Shown: one piece after another, positions 17,746 through 39,122 of the stretch
Layout of the letters: every line of letters starts with the position of its first letter
Position numbering within the stretch: position 1 is the stretch's first letter
Position numbers and translations under genes: made by a program
Source of the DNA: a virus
Length of the DNA: 40,451 bases
IMG/VR virus record: IMGVR_UViG_3300025263_000044
Direction: 5' to 3' (one strand)
The notes under the pieces: model-generated
Seen by the model: only the letters and a program-made list of their open reading frames with translations
What the model was told of the DNA's origin: nothing
Database searches by the model: none

Positions 17746-18141
17746 ATGACAACCTCAATTTTTCAATCACTTGGCCTCGATGTTCTGTCGGTCACGGGTG
17801 GCGTTTACCATCTGCGACGCAGCGCGGCACACACCAACGCCGGCACTGAAGTCGTAGGCCTGCTGCTGTCCGACGACCTGCCGCTCACCAAAAAGACGCG
17901 CAGCGTTAAGCTGTTTTTGCAGGACGTTGTTGACAATGTTCCGGCGGCGCGCATCGTCTCACACTGGCAGACGCTGGACGCTCGCCGATTCGAAGAGTCC
18001 GGACTGGAGCCTCTCGTGCTGGACCTGGTCGAGGCACAAATCCCCGAGCACCCCACTGAACAAAACTACACCCGTCCCGACAGCGCACGCCAGCGGCATG
18101 CCGTCCGGCTGGTGAATGGAGAGGTGGTTTGCTACAACTGA
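17746..18141 (+). CDS. Hypothetical protein
   Basis: GGAG RBS; TGGTATAAT -10 upstream; overlaps the start of the ARH gene. Confidence 0.6.
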   Translation: MTTSIFQSLGLDVLSVTGGVYHLRRSAAHTNAGTEVVGLLLSDDLPLTKKTRSVKLFLQDVVDNVPAARIVSHWQTLDARRFEESGLEPLVLDLVEAQIPEHPTEQNYTRPDSARQRHAVRLVNGEVVCYN

Positions 18142-19049
18142 TTTCCAACCTGGCACCACCTTGGCAAGACGCTGTTCATGCGGCCTTGATGGGTGATGCT
18201 TTTGGTGTGCCGCACGAATTCAAGGCGGGACATGCTGTTCCGTACAAGGAAGGGCTCTCTATGGTCCTCCCAGACAGCTACCCTAAAACATTCCCTTGGA
18301 TTCCCTACGGTACCTGGTCCGACGACGGCAGCCAGATGATGGCTTTGCTAGACGTATTAGTGACCAGGGAAGGGCGCTATGATGGCGCCGCGTTCGGTGC
18401 CAACCTCTTGGCCTGGTTGCGAAATGCACAGTTCCAAGCCGGCGGGTCCGTGTTCGACTGCGGCATGCAGACCCGGATGGCGCTGCAGCTGCTCGAGGAA
18501 GGGAAATCATTCATTCCGACCAGTCCTCATTGTGGCAATGGCAGCTTGATGCGCGTCTTGCCCGTCGCGGCTTTGCCTGATACCTATGGTGTCAGCCAGG
18601 CTGATGCTCTGCGCGCGGCGATGGCGCAATCGGATATCACACATCCGCAGGCAATGGCACGGGTAAGCTGTGCGCTGTATGTCGACCTGGCTTGGCAGAT
18701 TCAAAAAAATGGTGCCAGTAATGGCGTGCGTGCTTTGCTGCCCGCGGCCGGAGACAAGCTCAACGAACTTAAGCTGCTCTCCCCGGCAGAGGAAGAGGCT
18801 CAGTCCTATATTTTGACGTATGGTGCGAGCAACATGCCCACCAATTCTGGACATGTGGTTAACAGCCTTTGGTCAGCGTTATGGGCGATTGACCAATCCC
18901 GAAGCCTCAGCGAGACGCTGCGTAATGCTGTCAGCTCGGGCGGGGACACTGACACGGTCGCCTGCATTGCCGGCGGCCTGGCCAGTTTGGTATTCGGTTG
19001 GGATGAAACGGCGCTCGAATGGCGCCGTCAGATGAACTATTCAGCCTAA
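18129..19049 (+). CDS. ADP-ribosylglycohydrolase (DraG/ARH family)
   Basis: GDAFGVPHEF, WSDDG, GNGSLMR, ITHP, GGDTDTVACIAG. Confidence 0.92.
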   Translation: MLQLISNLAPPWQDAVHAALMGDAFGVPHEFKAGHAVPYKEGLSMVLPDSYPKTFPWIPYGTWSDDGSQMMALLDVLVTREGRYDGAAFGANLLAWLRNAQFQAGGSVFDCGMQTRMALQLLEEGKSFIPTSPHCGNGSLMRVLPVAALPDTYGVSQADALRAAMAQSDITHPQAMARVSCALYVDLAWQIQKNGASNGVRALLPAAGDKLNELKLLSPAEEEAQSYILTYGASNMPTNSGHVVNSLWSALWAIDQSRSLSETLRNAVSSGGDTDTVACIAGGLASLVFGWDETALEWRRQMNYSA

Positions 19050-19054
19050 GCGCG

Positions 19055-19375
19055 TTAGTCCAAGAGGCTGCCGAGGACGGCGCCTGCTACCTCAATAGCT
19101 CCCACAACTACATCGCCGGCCAGGTGAGCGGCGCCAGCTGCGAGGTCAGCAACACCCGTGGCCACGGCGCCCAGCCCATCTGCAGCCATCGAAAGCAGGT
19201 CAGGGGAGTCGGTGACGACGTCGCCTGCCACGTCCAGGAGCTCGCCAGCAACGCTCTCCTTTTCCTTCTTCACGGAGTCACTGTTGAGCACCTCCTGTGT
19301 ACGCGTGCTGAATTCCTGCAGCTGCTCGGAGGTTAGGTATGGCGGAGCGGCGCCAGAGCCATCCTTAAGGGTCAC
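19055..19375 (-). CDS. Hypothetical Ala/Gly/Asp-rich protein
   Basis: Coupled to the rnhA stop (GTGA overlap). Confidence 0.55.
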   Translation of the reverse strand: MTLKDGSGAAPPYLTSEQLQEFSTRTQEVLNSDSVKKEKESVAGELLDVAGDVVTDSPDLLSMAADGLGAVATGVADLAAGAAHLAGDVVVGAIEVAGAVLGSLLD

Positions 19376-20028
19376 GCGGCCTCCGCAAAGACGTCACCTC
19401 GAGCTGCGACCGCTCGGTTCGCCAGCTCGTCGCAACGTTCGTTCAGCGGGTGTCCGTTGTGGCCGCGAACCCAGGTTACATTCACCTTGCGCTTGTCGGC
19501 GACGGCGAGCAGCGCCTGCCAGAGCTCCTTGTTTTTAACGGGCTCTTTAGTGGAAGTTTTCCAGTTGTTGCGGACCCACCCGAAGCGCCACTCGGTCATG
19601 CCCTTCTGCACATACTGGCTGTCGGTAATCAGTTCGACCTCGCTGCCTTCCGGCGTTCGCTTCAGTCCTTCGATGGCCGCAGTCATCTCGGCGATGTTGT
19701 TCGTCTGGACGCCGATGTAGCCGCCGCCGGCAAACATCTCGACGCCGTTGTCCAGCACGATTACGCCCCAGGCCGCCGGCCCAGGATTGCCTTTCGAGGC
19801 TCCATCGGTCGACACTACAAAAGGACCGGTGCCCTGGGGACGAGCTTGAGTTACAGGTGCGGCGGCAGGCTTCATGACTGCATGCATTTTGGCCAGGGCA
19901 TCCTGCGCCAGCTTCTCACACGCTTCACGGTCACGGTTGTAAGTGCCATCGGGGCGGCGAGGGGACGCGATAAGTTCCAGGTTGGCTTGTGCAATTGCCA
20001 GTGCTTCTTCCAGTTTTTCAGTGGTCAT
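19372..20028 (-). CDS. rnhA: Ribonuclease HI with N-terminal extension
   Basis: TDGASKGNPG, TNNIAEM, TDSQYV, PVKNKELW, WVRGHNGHPLNERCDELA. Confidence 0.93.
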   Translation of the reverse strand: MTTEKLEEALAIAQANLELIASPRRPDGTYNRDREACEKLAQDALAKMHAVMKPAAAPVTQARPQGTGPFVVSTDGASKGNPGPAAWGVIVLDNGVEMFAGGGYIGVQTNNIAEMTAAIEGLKRTPEGSEVELITDSQYVQKGMTEWRFGWVRNNWKTSTKEPVKNKELWQALLAVADKRKVNVTWVRGHNGHPLNERCDELANRAVAARGDVFAEAA

Positions 20029-22157: not shown

Positions 22158-22499
22158 ATGAATCCTGTACTGCTTTTCTCGATTCTCGCGCTGCTGTCCG
22201 CGGCCGCGACGCTGAAACTTACTGACCGTGGCCTGGTTCGGCTGCTGGGCCTAGCCAGTCTCATGCTGGCGGTGCCGGCTGTGGCGTTCATGAGCACATG
22301 GTTTGATTGGCGTGTTGAGCTGGGCGCGCATCCAAGCGCGATGGGCTACACCTTGGTCAGCCTGGCCGGCGTCGGCGCCATTTTCATGATGGCAGTGTGC
22401 CTGTCCGCAATCCTTCGCCTGGTGCTTGCTGGAGTGAACGCTTTGCGTGGTAAGCCAACGCTTTTCGTGAAAGTTAACGTAAAACTTGACAAGGTGTGA
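22158..22499 (+). CDS. Small membrane protein
   Basis: Three hydrophobic segments. Confidence 0.55.
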   Translation: MNPVLLFSILALLSAAATLKLTDRGLVRLLGLASLMLAVPAVAFMSTWFDWRVELGAHPSAMGYTLVSLAGVGAIFMMAVCLSAILRLVLAGVNALRGKPTLFVKVNVKLDKV

Positions 22500-22514
22500 G
22501 TCAGGCGCTATACT
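22486..22514 (+). promoter_or_regulatory. Consensus-like sigma70 promoter of the tmRNA gene
   Basis: TTGACA-17 bp-TATACT. Confidence 0.85.
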
Positions 22515-22520
22515 AATCTC

Positions 22521-22920
22521 AATCGTTGTAATTCCTCTGGGATACAAAAGTTGCTGGAAGGGAGCATCGGAGCTCCCCACCTCCACCAACTGCACATTAT
22601 TACAGGTGTGGGAACCCGACAGAGACTTCAACTGCAGATACCGACTGGAATGGAAGGGACTTTGCAGGAGTGGATAAGACCACTTGAGAGTAGCGAACTA
22701 ATGGGGGCGCGCGGTTCAAGTCCGCGATAGTGTGCAGCTGATGGGGGTGAATTGGATTCGACAGTGGCTGGAAACAAAGGCGGCAACGGCGGGAACGTGA
22801 CTTCCCGGCAGGCTTTGCCCTGCGCAAAAGAGCAAACTTCAAGTGCAAATGACGACACTTTCCTGATGGCTGCTTAAGCCATTCGGGTCGCGCTTACCTC
22901 GGAACAGAAATGCGCAACTA
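22521..22920 (+). ncRNA. ssrA: Circularly permuted two-piece tmRNA: acceptor piece ~22521-22588, intervening segment 22589-22742, coding piece 22743-~22920
   Basis: The 3' end CACCTCC-A-CCA (22578-22588) lies upstream of the 5' end GGGGGTGAATTGGATTCGAC (22743). They pair as a 7-bp acceptor stem with G3:U70. CAGTGGCT and AGTTGCTG form helix 2. Tag frame 22845-22877 encodes ANDDTFLMAA*, with the stop in an ATGGCT..AGCCAT hairpin. Confidence 0.9.
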
Positions 22921-22946
22921 AGCCCAGGCTCCGGCCTGGGCTTTTT
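22920..22946 (+). terminator. Rho-independent terminator of ssrA
   Basis: AAGCCCAGG-CTCCGG-CCTGGGCTT followed by TTT. Confidence 0.85.
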
Positions 22947-23013
22947 CATTGGAAGTTCTGGAATGAAAACAGCCCGGAATCCGAAGGATACCAGGCTGCT
23001 GAGAAGAGTCCGA

Positions 23014-24568: not shown

Positions 24569-25024
24569 ATGACGACCATTCTCGAAAATCGCCAAGCTCG
24601 CCATCGCTACTTCATTGAAGAGCGCCTGGAGGCTGGTGTGGTGCTCGAAGGCTGGGAAGTCAAGGCTATCCTCGCAGGGCGCGCAAATTTCAATGGCGGT
24701 GGTGCCTTCATCCGGATTACCAACGGGGAAGCCTGGTTGGAGTCAATGACAATCACTCCGCTCTTGATGGCGAACATGGGCCGCCTGGCGCCTCGTACGC
24801 CGGCGCGCGCCCGCAAACTTCTGCTAAGCCGTGCAGAGCTTACCAAGCTCTCACGCAAGGTGGCCGAGCGGGGCTACACCATAGTCCCGCTCGAAGTCAC
24901 GCTCAGTACGAAAAAGAAGCTCAAGCTTCAAATCGGCCTGGCAAAGGGCAAGAATCACGCGGATAAGCGTGAAACCGTCAAGCAGCGTGACCTGACCCGG
25001 GAGCTCTGCCGTGAAATTCCGTGA
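24569..25024 (+). CDS. smpB: SsrA-binding protein SmpB
   Basis: NRQARHRYFIEERLEAGVVLEGWEVKAI, RARKLLL, GYTIVPL, IGLAKGK..DKRE. Confidence 0.95.
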   Translation: MTTILENRQARHRYFIEERLEAGVVLEGWEVKAILAGRANFNGGGAFIRITNGEAWLESMTITPLLMANMGRLAPRTPARARKLLLSRAELTKLSRKVAERGYTIVPLEVTLSTKKKLKLQIGLAKGKNHADKRETVKQRDLTRELCREIP

Positions 25025-31460: not shown

Positions 31461-31661
31461 CTAGCGGCCGGGAATCCGGTTGGACCCTGGTGCGTGGCCG
31501 AAGTGATAGCCCTTGCAGAACTTGCAGTGGTAGACGTTGAACCAACTGCGGTCGCCCTTGGCGGCCTTCAGCTTGCGAATCCCAGCTTCAGTTTCAGCAG
31601 CGGAGGTGAACCGCTGCTTGCCGGCGCAGCTCTTGCGGCGTAAACGTCGCTTACTTGACAC
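31461..31661 (-). CDS. Small basic Zn-ribbon-like protein
   Basis: CAGKQRF..YHCKFCKGYHFG; overlaps the vWA stop. Confidence 0.6.
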   Translation of the reverse strand: MSSKRRLRRKSCAGKQRFTSAAETEAGIRKLKAAKGDRSWFNVYHCKFCKGYHFGHAPGSNRIPGR

Positions 31662-32451
31662 CAGCCGCCAGCCACTGCAGCAGCTCGTCGCTGAACAAGG
31701 CCTGGTTGAGCTCTTCGTCGGACATCTCGACGAATTGTTTCAGGTTCTTGACAGGCACGAAACCGGTATTGCTGAAGGCGTCACCGATTTTATCCAGGAA
31801 CGGGAAGGTGGAGCCGCCGTTGGTCACGCCCAGGAACAGGAAGTACACTTCGTCCTTGCGAGCTTCGGACTCTTTCAATACCTGCATGGTCCGCACTTTG
31901 TCCGTGTTGTCGCCATCGGTGATAACGATGACCAGGGAACGCTTCTTCGCGCCTTTGACGACTTCGTCTTTCTTGCCCATCAGACCACCGAAGAAACCTG
32001 CTTTCTTGACGGTGTCACCGGCCCAGCCAAAGTGCTTCAGCATACGTTCCAGCACGTAGCTGTAGTCGGTACCGCCGTTGTAACCAGGCGTGCGGCCGCG
32101 GATGTCTTCCGGGATGCCGCGTGGGTAGTTGTCGATGTTCACGCCGAAAAATTGCTGCGGCAGGTAACCGTAGTAGTTGTGGGCATCAACCGAGCCCAGT
32201 TCGTGCACGCCAGCGGCGCCGTCCGAGAACGTGAACACGTCGAGTTTCTTGTCTGGGTCGAAGGTAAAGCCCCATGGCGCCAGGCGAGTCAGCAGGCTGT
32301 CGGTAATGCCGATGCGATGCTCGTCATCGAACGAACCAGACACGTCCATGGCCACGCCCACTTCCAGTGCTGGAGGGGTCACGATGCCAACCTTTTGCAG
32401 GCACAGGGACAGAGCTTGCGACGACTTTTCGAGATTCAGTTTCATGCTCAC
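31651..32451 (-). CDS. vWA-domain protein (TerF C-terminal vWA type)
   Basis: VAMDVSGSF MIDAS, GGTDYS, VITDGD, YFLFLGV. Confidence 0.85.
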   Translation of the reverse strand: MSMKLNLEKSSQALSLCLQKVGIVTPPALEVGVAMDVSGSFDDEHRIGITDSLLTRLAPWGFTFDPDKKLDVFTFSDGAAGVHELGSVDAHNYYGYLPQQFFGVNIDNYPRGIPEDIRGRTPGYNGGTDYSYVLERMLKHFGWAGDTVKKAGFFGGLMGKKDEVVKGAKKRSLVIVITDGDNTDKVRTMQVLKESEARKDEVYFLFLGVTNGGSTFPFLDKIGDAFSNTGFVPVKNLKQFVEMSDEELNQALFSDELLQWLAAGVK

Positions 32452-32453
32452 GT

Positions 32454-33482
32454 TTAAACTTTCCTTTGAATGAATTGCACAATATCAGTCAGCTTTTCTA
32501 CAGCGAGATATCGCTGCGTATCGCTGGGTTTGGCGGAGAGCCCCGCCAGTTGGCTGTAGACGGCCGGCAGCTGGAGAAGTACTCCGTCCTGCACGAGCGT
32601 CATGATTTCCTGCACGCGCTCCTTATCGAGCGTCAGCATTTGAAGCTGTTCCAATACCAGCGCTTGCGAGCCCGTAATCGAGGTCAGGCGAGCCACCAGC
32701 AACTGGCCAACTTGAGCATCCATCTGGTCAAGCAGGTATTCCGCAGCCAGGGCATTCGCCTGCAGGGCCTCGCCAGCTTCATGGTTGTCTTTCGACAGCC
32801 TTTCCAGCTCTGAAACGTTTGCGGCCAAGATGCTGCCTGCGGAAGAAAGCAAGGATTCCAGCTGGCGAACTTCACCGACCACCGAACCCCAAACTTTCGC
32901 GACTGGCTTGCGGAACAGACCGCCGTCCATCGACTCCAGAACTTCTTGCAGCAGTGATTGCAGCCGAGACAAATGCTGCGTAACGTTGCGAACAGCAGAA
33001 GATTGCATCAGGTCCAGGCGTTGCTTTACCAAGTCCGTCAACGATTCCTGCGCTATTACACCGAAGCGCAACCAAGCGGATGAGTCCATTGCCTGAGGGC
33101 TGACGCCGGCCAGTACAGCTTGCGTGCGTACCAGCATGTCGCCAACAGTTCCAGGAAAGCGCTTAGCCAGGGTGTCGAATTCGACTTCCATTGGTTTTCG
33201 TTGCGTACCGGGCAAGGCCGAAGCTTTCACCGGTTCCACCGCAACTATCGCTGTCGCGGGTGCTGAAACAGGCAGGGCAGTCGGTTTCGGTTGCAGCGGG
33301 ACACTTGCCGGCATCGGCGCAGGTGCTGCCCCTGGCAATGCGGTAGGCTTCAAGGCCGTCGGCGTAATTACAGGGGTGGCAGTCCTAGGGCCTCCGGAGT
33401 CCGGGCTACCCAGTCGTGTCGGCTTCACAGCAGAGCCAGTTTCCTGGGTGCCTCCACCGATGATGGTTGCCTTAATGGACAT
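32454..33482 (-). CDS. Pro-rich N-terminus plus helical TelA-like accessory protein
   Basis: KPTALP repeats followed by a coiled-coil with a GGLFRK motif; inside the ter operon. Confidence 0.6.
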   Translation of the reverse strand: MSIKATIIGGGTQETGSAVKPTRLGSPDSGGPRTATPVITPTALKPTALPGAAPAPMPASVPLQPKPTALPVSAPATAIVAVEPVKASALPGTQRKPMEVEFDTLAKRFPGTVGDMLVRTQAVLAGVSPQAMDSSAWLRFGVIAQESLTDLVKQRLDLMQSSAVRNVTQHLSRLQSLLQEVLESMDGGLFRKPVAKVWGSVVGEVRQLESLLSSAGSILAANVSELERLSKDNHEAGEALQANALAAEYLLDQMDAQVGQLLVARLTSITGSQALVLEQLQMLTLDKERVQEIMTLVQDGVLLQLPAVYSQLAGLSAKPSDTQRYLAVEKLTDIVQFIQRKV

Positions 33483-33500
33483 GTCGAAGGCCCGTGCCGA

Positions 33501-34136
33501 TTAGGAGAAGTGGCCCAGCACTTCGTTGAAGTCGCTGTTGAAGCCGACGCCGATGTTCGCGTAGGACGAGCCGGCTGCATCAATCATGATGGAACCCATC
33601 TGAACACCGATGAATTCGCCAAACTGCTCGGACAGCGAGACGTTCAGCAGCTCTTGGCCGGCACCGTTCTCGATGATGACGCGGGCATTCTTGACGTTAC
33701 GGAAGGTGCGACCGGCATTCTGCGGGTGAATCATCGCCACCAGCGGGATTTCGATTGCACCACCTGCTGGCGGGGTCAGGCGGTCCGGCTGGATGGAGAC
33801 CCATTCGTCGTCGCCGGCCTGGTTGCCGTCGGTCGCATCAGGGCTGTGAACCAGCGCGCCGTTGTAGATGGAGAAGGTCTTGTCAGCTGCCAGCGGCAGG
33901 GAGCCTTGGCTCTCGCCACGGATGGTACGCTGCACATTGTAGGTCGACAGGATGTCGCCCAGGCTCGATACCTTGGCGCCGGCGCCGGTGTTTTGAGCTA
34001 CCAGGGCATGCAGGTCGATATCGGTGTCACCTTCCCAGGACAGGCGGGCCTTGAAGCGTTCACCCTTGTTCAGGTTCAGTGCGAGTTTCTGGGCGACGTC
34101 GCCAGGTTTGCTCAGGTTCAGTTGCAGTGCAGTCAT
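33501..34136 (-). CDS. terD: TerD-family stress protein
   Basis: LSWEGDTDIDLHAL..YN..LVHSPDATDG..GDDE..TFRNVKNA; AAAGGA RBS before ATG 34136. Confidence 0.75.
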   Translation of the reverse strand: MTALQLNLSKPGDVAQKLALNLNKGERFKARLSWEGDTDIDLHALVAQNTGAGAKVSSLGDILSTYNVQRTIRGESQGSLPLAADKTFSIYNGALVHSPDATDGNQAGDDEWVSIQPDRLTPPAGGAIEIPLVAMIHPQNAGRTFRNVKNARVIIENGAGQELLNVSLSEQFGEFIGVQMGSIMIDAAGSSYANIGVGFNSDFNEVLGHFS

Positions 34137-34164
34137 TTTTTGTCCTTTCGACAGTGACGGTGAA

Positions 34165-35367
34165 TTAGTAGTTCTGCGGCGCAGCAGAGTTAATTTGCTG
34201 GCCCAGGTCCATGAGGTCCTTACGGGTTTGCGAAATAGTGGAGCGAGCTTCATCGAACTTCACGCGATTCGTCTCGCGAGCGGTATTAACGATGGCTTGC
34301 ATTGCCTGAGAGTCGGCCACGACTTTTTTCAGGTCATTGGCCTGCGACAGGCGGTTGTTTCCTGGCGCAGAGGCTGCGGTAGTAACAACCGTGCCCATCA
34401 TGCTCGAGCGCGCCGCTTGAAGATGCTGGTCCAGCTGAGCGTTTGCCTCACCCAGCCGCTGAACGTTTCGAACCAGATGAGCGCCATGGATGCCAATCAG
34501 GGTCATTCGGATGCTGCCGAAGCGGTCACCCATGGTGATGGTCAGCTCTTGCATCGTCGAAATGCCTGCGTTTTGCAGCTGGCGCAGAATCAGTGCTTCG
34601 GCCGGCAGGCGGGTCAGCATTGCTTCGCGGCTCAGTGCCACGGATTCCAAAGCTTGCAGCTTGTCGTGGATTTCCTGCTGCACCATAGTGTCCTTGTCAG
34701 CCGCGGCCAACAAGGCAGGCGCTTGGGCTTGCGCTTTGGCCAATGCGTTGTTCAGGAACAGCACTTCTTCACCAAAGGCGATGAAGGAATTGCGGTACTG
34801 GGCCTTGATAGCATCCATGCCACGCAGTTCTTCGGCCAGCTTGCCAATCTCGGTATTGAGCTTTCGCTCCATGCCGACAACCACATCCGACAGCGACTTG
34901 GACTTTGCGCGGGCGGTACGACCCAGTTCTTCGTATGCACGGTCCAGGCCGCGCTGCAGGGCTTTTTTGCTGAACAGGCCCAGGATTCGGTCGCCTAGGC
35001 TAGGCTTCGCCGACAGAATCTGCTCTGCCAGCTCACCGATACGTTCCTTGGCGATTTCTTCCGACAGGCTATCGACCAGCTTGAAGATTTGCGGGTTTTC
35101 GTTCTTGTTAATGCGGTCCAGGAACGAGTCCAGGGCGCGATTCAGGTTATTGGTTGGCTCCTGGCCCATCATCGCAATGTGCTGGGCAGGAGTGGTGGCG
35201 AATTCGAACTTCTCCACACGAGCCTGGATGGCCGACAGCTGTTGCGGTTCCAGGTTCAGCGGGAAGTTCTGAGGCAGTGCCAGTGCTACAGGCATGGCCG
35301 GCAGGGTGCTGGTAACCATGCCTGCGCCAAGGCCCAGGCTCGTAGGAGTCATAGTGGTGACGTTCAT
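34165..35367 (-). CDS. Toxic anion resistance protein (TelA/KlaB family)
   Basis: 400-aa coiled-coil with LGLF and IRQLQNAG motifs; ter context. Confidence 0.7.
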   Translation of the reverse strand: MNVTTMTPTSLGLGAGMVTSTLPAMPVALALPQNFPLNLEPQQLSAIQARVEKFEFATTPAQHIAMMGQEPTNNLNRALDSFLDRINKNENPQIFKLVDSLSEEIAKERIGELAEQILSAKPSLGDRILGLFSKKALQRGLDRAYEELGRTARAKSKSLSDVVVGMERKLNTEIGKLAEELRGMDAIKAQYRNSFIAFGEEVLFLNNALAKAQAQAPALLAAADKDTMVQQEIHDKLQALESVALSREAMLTRLPAEALILRQLQNAGISTMQELTITMGDRFGSIRMTLIGIHGAHLVRNVQRLGEANAQLDQHLQAARSSMMGTVVTTAASAPGNNRLSQANDLKKVVADSQAMQAIVNTARETNRVKFDEARSTISQTRKDLMDLGQQINSAAPQNY

Positions 35368-35393
35368 GTAGGTTGGTCCTTGGGCTTGATTGC

Positions 35394-36146
35394 TTAATCG
35401 ATTACTGCGTCGGCTACAACTTCAGCCACAGCACCTGCTGCACCCGCAGATTCTTTGCTGGTCAGCAGCTTGTGGATGTGGACGGCGCCAATCACAGCCA
35501 GGAAGCCAGCCGCTTTGAAGCACAGGTGGGTGTACTGGCCAGCGATGCCATGCAGCCCCTCGATGTAACCGGACAGCAGCGGGTCGGAGATGACCATTTC
35601 AGCACCCACCCAGCCCAGCAAGCCTGCGCCGACCCAGATGATGATTGGATACTTGTTCATCAGGCCCATCAGACCGTTGGCACCGAACACGATTACCGGG
35701 ATGGACAGTACGATACCCGCGATGGCGTACATGGTGCTGTGCGCGCCAGCGCTGTTTGCGGCAGCGGTTACAGCCAGCACGTTATCCAGGCTCATCATAA
35801 AGTCGGCCACGATAATGGTCTTCACGGCGGTGAATACGCGGTCAGCGGCGGTCACGTTGTGGTCGTCTTCGTTGGCGACCAGCAGTTTGTAGCCCAGGAA
35901 CAGCAGGTAGGCGCCGGCCACCAGTTTCACGTAGGGCACGCCCATCAGGAAACCGGCGAATACCAACAGCAGGGCGCGCAGGCCTACAGCGCCAGCAGTA
36001 CCCCAGATGACAGCTTTAGTGCGAACTTCTTTCGGCAGGGCTGCGCAGGCCATCGCAATCACGATTGCGTTGTCGACGCCCAGCATGATGTCGATGCCGA
36101 TAATTTTGAAAATGGCGCCCCAGTCGATGGTGGACAAAAATTCCAT
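35394..36146 (-). CDS. terC: TerC/YjbE family membrane protein
   Basis: IDIMLGVDNAIVIA..IIVADFMMSLDNVLAV..SIPVIVFG. Confidence 0.92.
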   Translation of the reverse strand: MEFLSTIDWGAIFKIIGIDIMLGVDNAIVIAMACAALPKEVRTKAVIWGTAGAVGLRALLLVFAGFLMGVPYVKLVAGAYLLFLGYKLLVANEDDHNVTAADRVFTAVKTIIVADFMMSLDNVLAVTAAANSAGAHSTMYAIAGIVLSIPVIVFGANGLMGLMNKYPIIIWVGAGLLGWVGAEMVISDPLLSGYIEGLHGIAGQYTHLCFKAAGFLAVIGAVHIHKLLTSKESAGAAGAVAEVVADAVID

Positions 36147-36704: not shown

Positions 36705-39122
36705 TTAGATGTCTTCAGCATCTCCGAAGTCGACAGTCGGCACAGGGTTGCTTTCCGGCGCCGGTTTCTCTGGAGCTGGTGGCAGCACGGTCACAACAGC
36801 AGCGCCCAGAGTCGCCTGCATGCCCAGCGCAACAGCCTTGTCCGGCAGGGCGGCGCCCGCACGTGCACGCTTCCCTCGATGAGCCTGCAATTCCTTCCCG
36901 GTGAGTGTCGCCTGGGTCAGCTTCTTCTTTCCGGCCGGCGTGGTCGCCACCACCAGTTCAGCCACTGGCCGTTCGTACGCGACAGCGACCGTCAACGTAT
37001 CCTTGCCGTTCAAGCTCATCAACTGCATGCCGCGGCCTTTGGCCATCTGCTTGAGTTCCGCCAGCGGGAACACGAGCACTTTGCCGGCGCTCGAGCCAAC
37101 GGCAATTTCGCCACCCTGGTTCACGGCAGGTACAACTGATGGCGGCAACACCTGCTCACCGGATTCCATAGTCATGACGGCCTTACCGGCCTTTTTGCCA
37201 GTGACCAGCTCGGCGCCCGGGCAGATGAAACCATACCCGCCACTGTTCGCCAGGAAGTAATACGCGTTCGAGTCCAGTACGAAAGCGTGCGCCAGCTTGT
37301 TTGCCCCGAACTCGACGAACGAAGACAACGGAGAGCCATCCCCGCGGCCGGTAGGGAACACCGAGGCCGAAACGTTGTAGGCCCGACCAGAATGGTCAAG
37401 GAACACTACCGTGTGAGCGCTGCGGGTCTCGATGATGGTCAGCGCTTCATCGCCGGGCTTCCAAGTAAGCGCGGACAGGTCGGCTTTGTGGCCAACACGC
37501 GCGCGAAGCCATCCGGACTTGGAGATGATGAGGGTGACCGGGTCATCACTGGCCGCCACCACCGACGAGATGGTGATGCGCTCCGCAGACTCGATGAGCG
37601 TGCGCCGCGGGTCGCCAAACTTCTTGCGGTCTGCGGCAATTTCTTCAAGAATCTGGGTCGTCATTGCCGCACGGTTGTCGAGCAGCCCCTGCAAGAATTC
37701 GCCCTCGCGTTGTAGCTCGCCCATTTCGCCTTCGAGCTTAATGCGCTCCAGGTTGGCCAACTGGCGCAGGCGAATTTCCAGGATGTCGGTGGCCTGTATA
37801 TCGGACAGGCCGAACTTCATCATCAGTTCATCTTTGGGGTCTTCGGCACTCCGGATAATGCGGATGACCTCATCGATGTGCAAGAACGCGGTCATGCGGC
37901 CGGCCAGGATGTGCATGCGCGCGTGCACCTGTGCAAGACGGTGCTGTGTGCGGCGGGTGACCGTCAGGAAACGGAAGTCAATCCACTCTTGCAGGACCGA
38001 CATCAGTCCCTTCTGGCCTGGCTTGCCGTCGCGGCCGAGGGCCACCAGGTTCATTGCAAAATTCGATTCGAGACTGGTGTGGGCAAGCAGCACCTGCATC
38101 ACCTCATCCGGCGCCAGACGCGAACTGCGTGGTTCTATTACCAGACGTACTGGGTCCTTTCCGTCCGACTCGTTGTTGATTTTGTCGACGACCGAAAGGA
38201 CCAGCGTTTTCAGGTTGAGCTGGTCCTGGCTCAGGCTTTTCTTGTCCTTCTTGATTTGCGGATTGGTCAGGGCCTCGATTTCGGTCATGACGGCTTCGGT
38301 CGACGTGCCAGGTGGCAGCTCGGTGATGACGATTTGCCACTGGCCACGAGCCAGTGGCTCCACCTTCCAGCGTGCGCGCGTGCGCAGCGAACCGCGGCCG
38401 GTTTCGTATGCTTTAGCGATTTCCGCAGTTGGCGATATGACCTGAGCACCATTCGCAAAGTCAGGCCCAGGCATGATGGCCAGGATGTCAGCAAGGCTCG
38501 CATTCGGATTGCGAATAAGGTGCTCGCACGCCAGCGCTACCTCGGTGAGGTTGTGACTAGGGATTTCTGTTGCCATACCCACCGCGATACCGCTGGCGCC
38601 GTTGAGCAGAATCATCGGCAGGCGAGCAGGTAGGACACTCGGCTCCTGCTGCGTTCCGTCGTAGTTGGGCACGAAATCTACGGTGCCCATATCCAGCTCC
38701 CCCAGCAGTAATTCCGACAGCTTTGTCAGTCGTGCTTCGGTATACCGCATCGCTGCCGCGCCGTCACCGTCGCGCGAGCCGAAATTGCCCTGGCCGTCGA
38801 TAAGTGGATACCGCAACGTGAAGTCCTGAGCCATGCGCACGGCCGCGTCATAGACCGACGAGTCTCCATGCGGGTGGTAATTGCCGAGCACCTGTCCAAC
38901 CACAGCCGCGCATTTACGGTGCTTCGCGGTCGCGGTCAAGCCCATGCGGTCCATCGCATATAGGATGCGGCGCTGCACTGGCTTTTCGCCATCAGCAACG
39001 TCCGGCAATGCGCGGCCCAGCACAACGCTCATCGCGTAGTCGAGGTAAGCCTGTTCTGCATAGGCGCCCAGGTCAACCCGGGTTTCTTGCGTATTGGGCT
39101 CGAGATTGATGATTTCGGTCAT
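36705..39122 (-). CDS. parC: DNA topoisomerase IV subunit A
   Basis: [26 protein letters not shown], catalytic AAAMRYTE, beta-pinwheel CTD with no GyrA box seen. Confidence 0.95.

Follow-up and report, generated by a model that had tools for sequence, protein, structure and literature searches.

A degenerate tRNA-like module in the spacer of a phage two-piece tmRNA gene, a candidate processing handle for RNase P and RNase Z

The stretch of viral DNA analysed here (IMG/VR record IMGVR_UViG_3300025263_000044, 40,451 nucleotides (nt) long, the whole of which is termed the window) contains a permuted, two-piece transfer-messenger RNA (tmRNA) gene. The acceptor and coding pieces of this gene are separated by an intervening segment, or spacer, within which an acceptor-like stem is joined to a canonical T-arm. 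Judged from its sequence, this acceptor/T module is a degenerate tRNA and not a product of chance. The best-supported reading is that it would act as a handle through which RNase P and RNase Z process the precursor, since the same place in several unrelated spacers holds a T-arm module, in one family with compensatory changes. We hold this reading tentatively, with a confidence that stops just short of even.

The two-piece tmRNA gene

The gene is a match to RF04321 at 22524–22877 (+), scoring 85.5 bits against a cut-off of 47 (E = 3.7e-15) with an alignment that spans model positions 1–213 of 213. This is the sole Rfam family to reach its curated threshold in the window. ARAGORN with default settings calls neither a tRNA nor a tmRNA in the whole 40 kb, and probably misses the tmRNA because its own T-loop is deviant. 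The parts of the gene and its accompanying features are as follows.

22486–22514 (+), sigma-70-type promoter of the tmRNA precursor (TTGACA, 17 nt, TATACT; 11 of 12 consensus matches)
22524–22588 (+), acceptor piece of the tmRNA, from the RF04321 alignment and the sequence
22560–22577 (+), own T-arm of the tmRNA, GGGAG-CATCGGAG-CTCCC, with an 8-nt non-canonical loop
22578–22584, 3′ strand of the tmRNA acceptor stem, CACCTCC, followed by the discriminator A22585 and an encoded CCA (22586–22588)
22589–22742 (+), spacer, not present in the mature tmRNA; the unaligned insert of the RF04321 match
22738–22742 (+), CTGAT leader ahead of the mature 5′ end
22743–22877 (+), coding piece of the tmRNA as far as the tag stop, from the RF04321 alignment and the sequence
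22920–22946 (+), intrinsic terminator, a 10-base pair (bp) stem followed by a T run
24569–25024 (+), smpB, encoding the protein partner of tmRNA (PF01668, E = 2.6e-45), 1.7 kb downstream of the tmRNA

The acceptor stem is formed by GGGGGTG (22743–22749) with CACCTCC, and includes the G3·U70 pair that is the rule for tmRNA acceptor stems. The tag open reading frame (ORF) runs from GCA at 22845 to TAA at 22877 and encodes ANDDTFLMAA*; two differences within it in close relatives (22847 and 22874) are both synonymous. Promoter-like sites number two in the region, compared with 0.4 expected from shuffles, and a leader of the YTGAT type is common to other phage permuted tmRNAs. By all its defining features this is an ordinary permuted tmRNA gene, with a promoter, a terminator, a tag and smpB nearby.

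The own T-arm is the unusual part. Loci are referred to below by L numbers; L321 is the only viral contig found with the same kind of own T-arm, with the loop AGTCGGAG. A large viral clade of ∼130 sequence stretches, to which L102, L174, L110, L202 and L231 belong, has the own T-loop GGCAGTA in place of TTCRANY.

Structure of the spacer

The elements of the spacer, in order from its 5′ end, are listed here.

22590–22600 (+), 5′ strand of the closing stem, CTGCACATTAT; 22594–22600 would be the 7-nt acceptor 5′ strand, and 22590–22593 forms a 4-bp extension
22603–22618 (+), D-arm-like hairpin CAGG-TGTGGGAA-CCCG, from ARAGORN at relaxed threshold (three of four pairs, one A·C mismatch, GG in the loop)
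22619–22709 (+), about 90 nt of hairpins (22632–22667, 22669–22684 and 22691–22700) at the place of the anticodon and variable arms
22710–22726 (+), canonical T-arm CGCGG-TTCAAGT-CCGCG, adjoining the 3′ strand of the closing stem
22727–22737 (+), 3′ strand of the closing stem, ATAGTGTGCAG; 22727–22733 would be the acceptor 3′ strand, with G22734 as the discriminator

The closing stem comprises 11 bp, of which 10 are Watson–Crick and one is U·G (22597/22730). All five pairs of the T-stem are Watson–Crick, and the loop is a full GGTTCAAGTCC. The spacer thus contains what defines the acceptor/T half of a tRNA, a 7-bp acceptor stem joined directly to a 5-bp T-stem with a GTTCRANYC loop, with the stem longer by 4 bp. 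T22601 and A22602, which follow the 5′ strand, correspond to tRNA positions 8 and 9, and no CCA is encoded after G22734. The acceptor pairs of the module begin A-U, C-G, A-U, U·G, and there is no G3·U70. An anticodon arm (a 5-bp stem and a 7-nt loop with U33) was found neither in the predicted fold nor by ARAGORN, which by default calls no tRNA in the spacer.

The spacer folded alone forms exactly the closing stem and the T hairpin (−51.8 kcal/mol, z = −2.9, 3 of 200 shuffles as good). Both are kept in the fold of the 424-nt precursor (z = −3.8, none of 100 shuffles as good). The minimum-free-energy fold also has the hairpins 22632–22638/22661–22667 and 22669–22684, while the region 22691–22700 pairs differently there. 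The original prediction, made on this DNA without database searches, had placed the 154-nt spacer, the 11-bp stem, the abutting T-arm and the TA after the 5′ strand correctly, as both the sequence and the folds attest; the lack of an encoded CCA and of a clear anticodon arm is borne out as well. Its three internal hairpins are all present in the sequence, of which the first two appear in the fold and the third does not.

A hairpin with five of five pairs and a [TG]TC[AG]A.. loop occurs four times on the two strands of the window, from which the expectation is ∼4e-5 at the exact place next to the stem and ∼0.005 anywhere in the spacer.

A search of the spacer alone against Rfam, proposed earlier as a check, returned no tRNA and no tmRNA family at E up to 10. 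The sole match is that of the T-arm to mascRNA-menRNA (RF01684), which at 13.2 bits (E = 3.3) is not significant against a cut-off of 42.5. There is likewise no match at E up to 10 to a self-cleaving ribozyme or riboswitch, and this candidate was rejected. The same applies to the idea that an integration site with a copy of the tmRNA 3′ end left a remnant here, since the strand following the spacer T-arm is unlike CACCTCCACCA. A nested mini-tmRNA was considered because 17 of the 21 bases at 22625–22645 agree with the tag start at 22836–22856, and a GCA frame of 17 codons, ending in TGA, begins there; the resemblance was judged to be chance (p ∼0.04 in dinucleotide shuffles, the lowest of 32 tests), with no G3·U70 and no match to a tmRNA model.

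Close variants of the locus are present in soil and plant metagenome contigs (four DNA runs). Their spacers differ only at 22662, 22663 and 22702; one change strengthens an inner pair, one breaks a pair and none lies in the closing stem or T-arm, too few to test covariation. The spacer carries 3 differences in 154 positions and the mature pieces 3 in 200, both small numbers.

Closing stems in other phage spacers

Phage tmRNA genes were taken from IMG/VR by searching for the conserved 5′ end and for the own T-arm found in one clade. Thirty-five unique spacers of at least 40 nt made up a sample that was not chosen by T-loop; it omits a few loci with 5′ ends outside the search pattern, including L216, L202 and L321. 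A closing stem of at least 7 bp is present in 30 of the 35. Such stems start 0–2 nt past the CCA and end a few nucleotides before the mature 5′ end, usually followed by a YTGAT leader; for most long spacers these distances are 0–1 nt and 4–5 nt. Because closing stems are generic in these spacers, the 11-bp stem by itself is not tRNA-specific. The tRNA acceptor/T geometry originally put forward therefore holds for the module, which is real and not chance, and not for the stem taken alone.

Most of the phage spacers examined are plain hairpins, and within one tmRNA clade their length varies from 3 to 146 nt. In alpha-type phage spacers the closing stem keeps its sequence and not only its pairing (TAGACACAC ... 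GTGTGTCTA TGAT; for example in L201, L222, L229, L231, L241, L299 and L354), which hints at a sequence-specific processing site. Another type of long spacer (143–170 nt) starts with AAACTTGGGCAGATAAGCC and is kept across four loci, L020, L034 and L052 (viral) and L200:2513-2655. It has neither a closing stem nor a T-arm, and L020 and L034 match no Rfam family besides tmRNA at E up to 1.

Recurrence and covariation of the T-arm module

In 3 of the 35 unselected spacers the T-arm and the 3′ strand of the closing stem are no more than 2 nt apart, compared with 0.08 expected from interior shuffles; two of the three are homologous to one another. A scan for the T-loop motif 5–35 nt ahead of the 5′ end of the tmRNA found 98 loci in viral contigs, in 27 of which ARAGORN finds a permuted tmRNA. 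In 10 of these 27 (six distinct sequences: L102/L175, L174, L110/L155/L172, L129/L158, L150 and L173) the T-loop lies in the spacer and is not that of the tmRNA's own T-arm. The truncated locus L199 is an eleventh case, and other scans brought in L370, L354, L358 and L366 along with L231 and L202. Rfam confirms a permuted tmRNA in all seven module-bearing representatives tested; in this run clan competition with the tmRNA models may hide matches of the spacers to tRNA, and it has no bearing on how tRNA-like the spacers are. The placement of the module falls into three kinds.

T-arm or T-loop at the 3′ strand of the closing stem: L102/L175/L201, L174/L299, L370, L354 and L358; and, as separate designs, L231, L202 and L173
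Module one tier deeper in the nest: L110/L216 and L129/L158
Loop motif kept without a T-stem: L150/L199/L366

Altogether some eight unrelated designs of spacer in viral contigs carry a degenerate tRNA-like module, in each case with the T-arm against the closing stem; these modules range from a near-complete cloverleaf to a bare T-loop.

Family A1 has five sequences (L102, L174, L370, L354 and L358). Both sides have changed in 6 of the 15 pairs of the closing stem and T-stem, and 94.6% of cells are paired, a share that is 84.9% in shuffles and is reached by 1 shuffle in 500. There is no variation in the loop GGTTCRA.TCC, although the hairpins next to it turn over. The closing stem of L150/L199/L366 has been rewritten, with seven pairs changed on both sides, and the motif AAGGTTCRAATCCAAACT is untouched. 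L102, L174 and L370 share the conserved interior loops AGTATGGTACT and CYGGATCGTATGCCRG, and covariation is seen in one stem (CCGG/CCGG to CTGG/CCAG). Against the mascRNA-menRNA model the L102 spacer scores 23.2 bits, below the cut-off.

The spacers of L102 (610-699) and L370 (339-428), whose family also includes L174:610-697, are 81% identical, compared with 61% for the acceptor piece and 64.5% for the coding piece. This suggests a cassette that may be exchanged between tmRNA genes or be under a selection of its own. L354 and L358 have the opposite pattern, with 72% identity in the spacer and 99% and 87% in the mature pieces.

A graded series and its possible origin

The most complete module is that of L110, where the spacer contains a 70-nt cloverleaf called as tRNA-Val(gac) by ARAGORN with default settings, yet with G at position 33, where tRNAs carry U. 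L202 seems to hold this tRNA too, enlarged by an insert of 53 nt and with a T-loop of 8 nt. The instances form a graded series, from L110 through L202 to the window (acceptor, D-like arm and T-arm) and then to the L150 type (loop only). Among 330 further loci ARAGORN finds 109 permuted tmRNAs, and it calls a nested tRNA only in L110-type sequence, in four loci.

PMC11915505 reports an intact tRNA-Ala within the intervening segment of one permuted tmRNA (GCA-2688965__sp002688965.2), which it describes as unique. That case would be the undecayed end of the series. The earlier statement that no tmRNA of such architecture had been described was thus too strong.

The module may have begun as a real tRNA gene lying between the tmRNA halves, brought there for example when a unit of tRNA and tmRNA was duplicated in tandem. 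Permutation is accepted to arise by tandem duplication followed by loss of the outer parts (PMC3978253), and if a tRNA-tmRNA unit took that route the tRNA would be placed exactly in the spacer. The captured tRNA would then have shed the parts needed for decoding, until only the features recognised by processing enzymes were left. A tRNA gene lies ∼20 nt upstream of a one-piece tmRNA in five viral loci (L106, L107, L111, L133 and L147). The same spacing upstream of a tmRNA is found in all seven matches of a genome scan (L442–L448, from Kiritimatiellia and Lentisphaerae), none of which is permuted. The upstream tRNAs (Asn, Gln, Gly, Glu, Ile or Met) and the one-piece tmRNA apparently form one unit.

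Genomic setting

The neighbourhood looks like that of a large phage. The genes around the tmRNA include those for a deoxynucleoside monophosphate kinase, a 5′ nucleotidase, an SLT lysozyme and a T5orf172 domain protein, together with many ORFs without a family. Just upstream of the tmRNA are an ADP-ribosylglycohydrolase (18129–19049), an RNase H (19372–20028, minus strand) and an RNA ligase (PF09414, 20558–21199). An RNA ligase beside tRNA-like genes is reminiscent of phage tRNA-repair systems. A cluster of the tellurite-resistance type on the minus strand (31651–36146) encodes vWA-TerF-like, TerD and TerC proteins, with two ORFs without assignment between them; it is unusual cargo, and adjoins topoisomerase IV/gyrase subunit A (36705–39122).

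This phage-like contig carries its own SmpB beside its own tmRNA. Relatives of its smpB were found in 12 viral loci (42–50% identity, on IMG/VR contigs of up to 524 kb). The fetched flanks contain no tmRNA in 11 of these, and a permissive Rfam search of six of the 12 gave none. The exception is L012, whose tmRNA is permuted and whose matches allow only a short spacer.

A proposed processing pathway

According to PMC11915505 and PMC3985003, the enzymes that cut permuted tmRNA precursors are those that process tRNA, probably RNase P and tRNase Z. In the window RNase P would cut at the 5′ end of the module (22593/22594, with A22594 as +1), and also at the 5′ end of the tmRNA (22742/22743). If only the cut at 22742/22743 were made, a structured tail of 154 nt would stay on the acceptor piece. 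The cut at 22593/22594 would leave the CCA with a 5-nt tail, which is short enough for the usual 3′ exonucleases. The 3′ side of the module would be trimmed after G22734 by RNase Z or exonucleases, and the spacer would exit as a tRNA-like RNA of ∼141 nt with both tmRNA pieces freed.

A number of observations count against this pathway. The cleavage sites are all predictions, and the predicted RNase P site of the module lies within a helix, with positions −1 to −4 paired, which is unfavourable for RNase P. The stack of acceptor-like stem and T-stem comprises 13–16 bp across the instances, compared with 12 in tRNA. RF00005 gives no match to 22585–22745 at E up to 10, and ARAGORN produces a tRNA only with its thresholds at 80%, namely a tRNA-SeC(tca) that depends on a forced intron of 47 nt and whose anticodon stem is poor, with two mismatches. 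The D-arm-like hairpin sits at the place of a tRNA D-arm; it is weak alone, and is not shared by the analogous spacers of other loci. The module is absent from 32 of the 35 unselected long spacers, and many relatives have spacers of only 3–19 nt. In the nearest relative of the tmRNA, that of L321 (on a contig of 310 kb), the spacer is 127 nt long, is closed by a stem of 14 bp and contains no T-arm. Because most relatives, L321 included, lack the module, it is not required for maturation in general. The processing signal first proposed thus stands as the best-supported reading, from recurrence and compensatory changes, and not as a general need.

Nor did searches of viral, metagenome and genome contigs turn up a homologue of the spacer of the window. 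The exact pattern of T-arm plus stem gave no matches in viral contigs, and the blastn match of the tmRNA to 199 loci is confined to the conserved 5′ end. The pattern CCA-N135-165-5′-end gave none in genome contigs and one in metagenome contigs, L200, with an unrelated spacer that has no closing stem or T-arm. A distant blastn search of 22400–23000 against phage GenBank records found no match. Because no homologue was found, the covariation proposed earlier as a check was examined in analogous families only, among which family A1 covaries.

Other explanations

The module might be a decaying relic, a former spacer tRNA eroding neutrally whose T-arm has not yet decayed and whose stem persists because spacers need a closing stem. 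This is unlikely, though it accounts for a good deal: the sporadic distribution of modules and the fast turnover of spacers (3–146 nt in the one clade), the missing T-arm of the nearest relative L321, the loss of U33 already in the L110 cloverleaf and the lack of a detectable tRNA-model score in the window. It fits poorly with a window T-arm that is perfect although the whole anticodon and variable region has been replaced, and with the changes in the T-stem of family A1, which are compensatory around an invariant loop while neighbouring hairpins turn over. The rewriting of the closing stem in L150/L199/L366 around an unchanged T-loop motif also argues against it, as does enrichment at one precise position (3 observed, 0.08 expected).

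The excised RNA might instead be a third stable RNA with its own job, the ∼141-nt species binding SmpB, a modification enzyme, EF-Tu, the CCA-adding enzyme or a host defence protein, with release by the tRNA enzymes only its route of biogenesis. We think this improbable too. The conserved interior loops AGTATGGTACT and CYGGATCGTATGCCRG and the covarying stem of L102/L174/L370 exceed what a processing handle needs. The L102 and L370 spacers are better conserved than the mature pieces, and the spacer of the window's close variants changes no faster than the mature pieces, on the small numbers given above. Phages also provide parallels. Phage DS6A has a tmRNA-like gene consisting of a tRNA-like domain (TLD) only, said in PMC4131195 to inhibit tmRNA, and phage T4 makes two small RNAs, RNAC and RNAD, to which no function is assigned (PMC9697503). 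On the other side, L354 and L358 have the opposite pattern of conservation, and without G3·U70 or an encoded CCA the RNA could not accept alanine as tmRNA does. A role as a decoy for anticodon nucleases, suggested in the original prediction, is not credible either, because there is no anticodon arm. A more specific form, doubtful enough that we would place little weight on it, is that the spacer is a swappable cassette and that a stable, anticodon-less mimic of ∼141 nt, set free by RNase P and RNase Z, engages the host machinery that binds tRNA or tmRNA during infection, each precursor giving three RNAs.

It is less probable again that the module is a structural aid, its T-loop, which as a tertiary module is of general use, capping the spacer helix, transiently helping the precursor to fold or substituting for the deviant own T-loop when tRNA enzymes or chaperones such as TruB and TrmA engage the precursor. 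Consistent with this, the own T-loop is non-canonical both in the window (the 8-nt CATCGGAG) and in the clade of L102, L174, L110, L202 and L231 (GGCAGTA), and the L150 family keeps the loop motif alone, without a T-stem. The idea that the spacer T-arm compensates for a deviant own T-loop was rejected for want of correlation: L370, L354, L358, L129, L173 and L150 have a module together with canonical own T-loops, and within the deviant clade it is a minority of the long spacers that bear one.

That the T-arm is a meaningless hairpin fallen by chance beside a generic closing stem is very improbable indeed: the window has three more T-arm-like hairpins by a loose definition and no spacer homologue demonstrates conservation, but the position-specific expectation is ∼4e-5, the same arrangement recurs in about eight unrelated designs and one family covaries.

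Comparison with known systems

Two-piece tmRNAs occur in Alphaproteobacteria, some Betaproteobacteria, Cyanobacteria and marine phages (RF04321, RF01849-51; PMC9004378). The gene in the window shares with them the gene order, the G3·U70 stem, the encoded CCA, the tag ORF, a closing stem in the spacer and a short leader. It differs in that the Rfam consensus spacer is ∼30 nt and unstructured, whereas the spacer here adds a T-arm and a D-like arm.

The closest precedent is the tmRNA with tRNA-Ala in its spacer, which likewise has (PMC11915505) a tRNA-shaped element between the acceptor and coding pieces of a permuted gene. The element in the window differs in its length of ∼141 nt, in having no anticodon arm and no tRNA-model score, and in lying on a phage-like contig; degenerate versions, moreover, recur in several phage lineages. 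The TLD-only gene of DS6A is also a phage acceptor/T-arm RNA related to trans-translation and without coding capacity (PMC4131195). That gene stands alone and is derived from tmRNA, whereas the module of the window is nested in a functional tmRNA gene and has neither G3·U70 nor CCA. With no G3·U70 and no match to a tmRNA family, it does not belong to the DS6A type.

Analogies of mechanism are found further afield. In mascRNA, RNase P cuts at the 5′ end of the element and thereby forms the 3′ end of the RNA upstream, and the small RNA is freed by RNase Z; the same is predicted for the module here. The elements of MALAT1 and MEN-beta (RF01684) resemble the module in that a tRNA-like fold without a decoding anticodon lies inside a longer transcript. 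They are eukaryotic, nuclear and unrelated in sequence, and the matches to their model are far below cut-off, so that the analogy is one of mechanism only. Transfer RNAs lying between stable RNAs, as in the spacers of bacterial rRNA operons and in mitochondrial tRNA punctuation, let processing enzymes separate the neighbours. Those are working tRNAs, whereas the module of the window is without the decoding half and is a member of neither family.

Implications

In the literature searched, which leaves older key papers outside its coverage, a tRNA-like spacer as a recurring, degenerate, phage-borne module is not described. What is new here is the recurrence of degenerate tRNA-like modules in phage tmRNA spacers, with a single published precedent for a tRNA in a spacer. 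Spacers have hitherto been treated as disposable. The module gives a concrete and testable candidate processing signal at a fixed place, where separation of the pieces has so far been ascribed only to 'probably RNase P and tRNase Z' (PMC3985003).

There is also a consequence for annotation. ARAGORN misses the tmRNA of the window altogether, and the pipeline of PMC11915505 discards tmRNA calls that overlap a tRNA unless they are strong and permuted.

The recurring module also suggests an evolutionary route in which a tRNA was caught between the halves when a tRNA-tmRNA unit was duplicated and was then stripped. Should the handle reading prove true, the module would be a bacterial or phage counterpart of the MALAT1-mascRNA trick, and an excised RNA that proved stable would be a third product of phage tmRNA genes.

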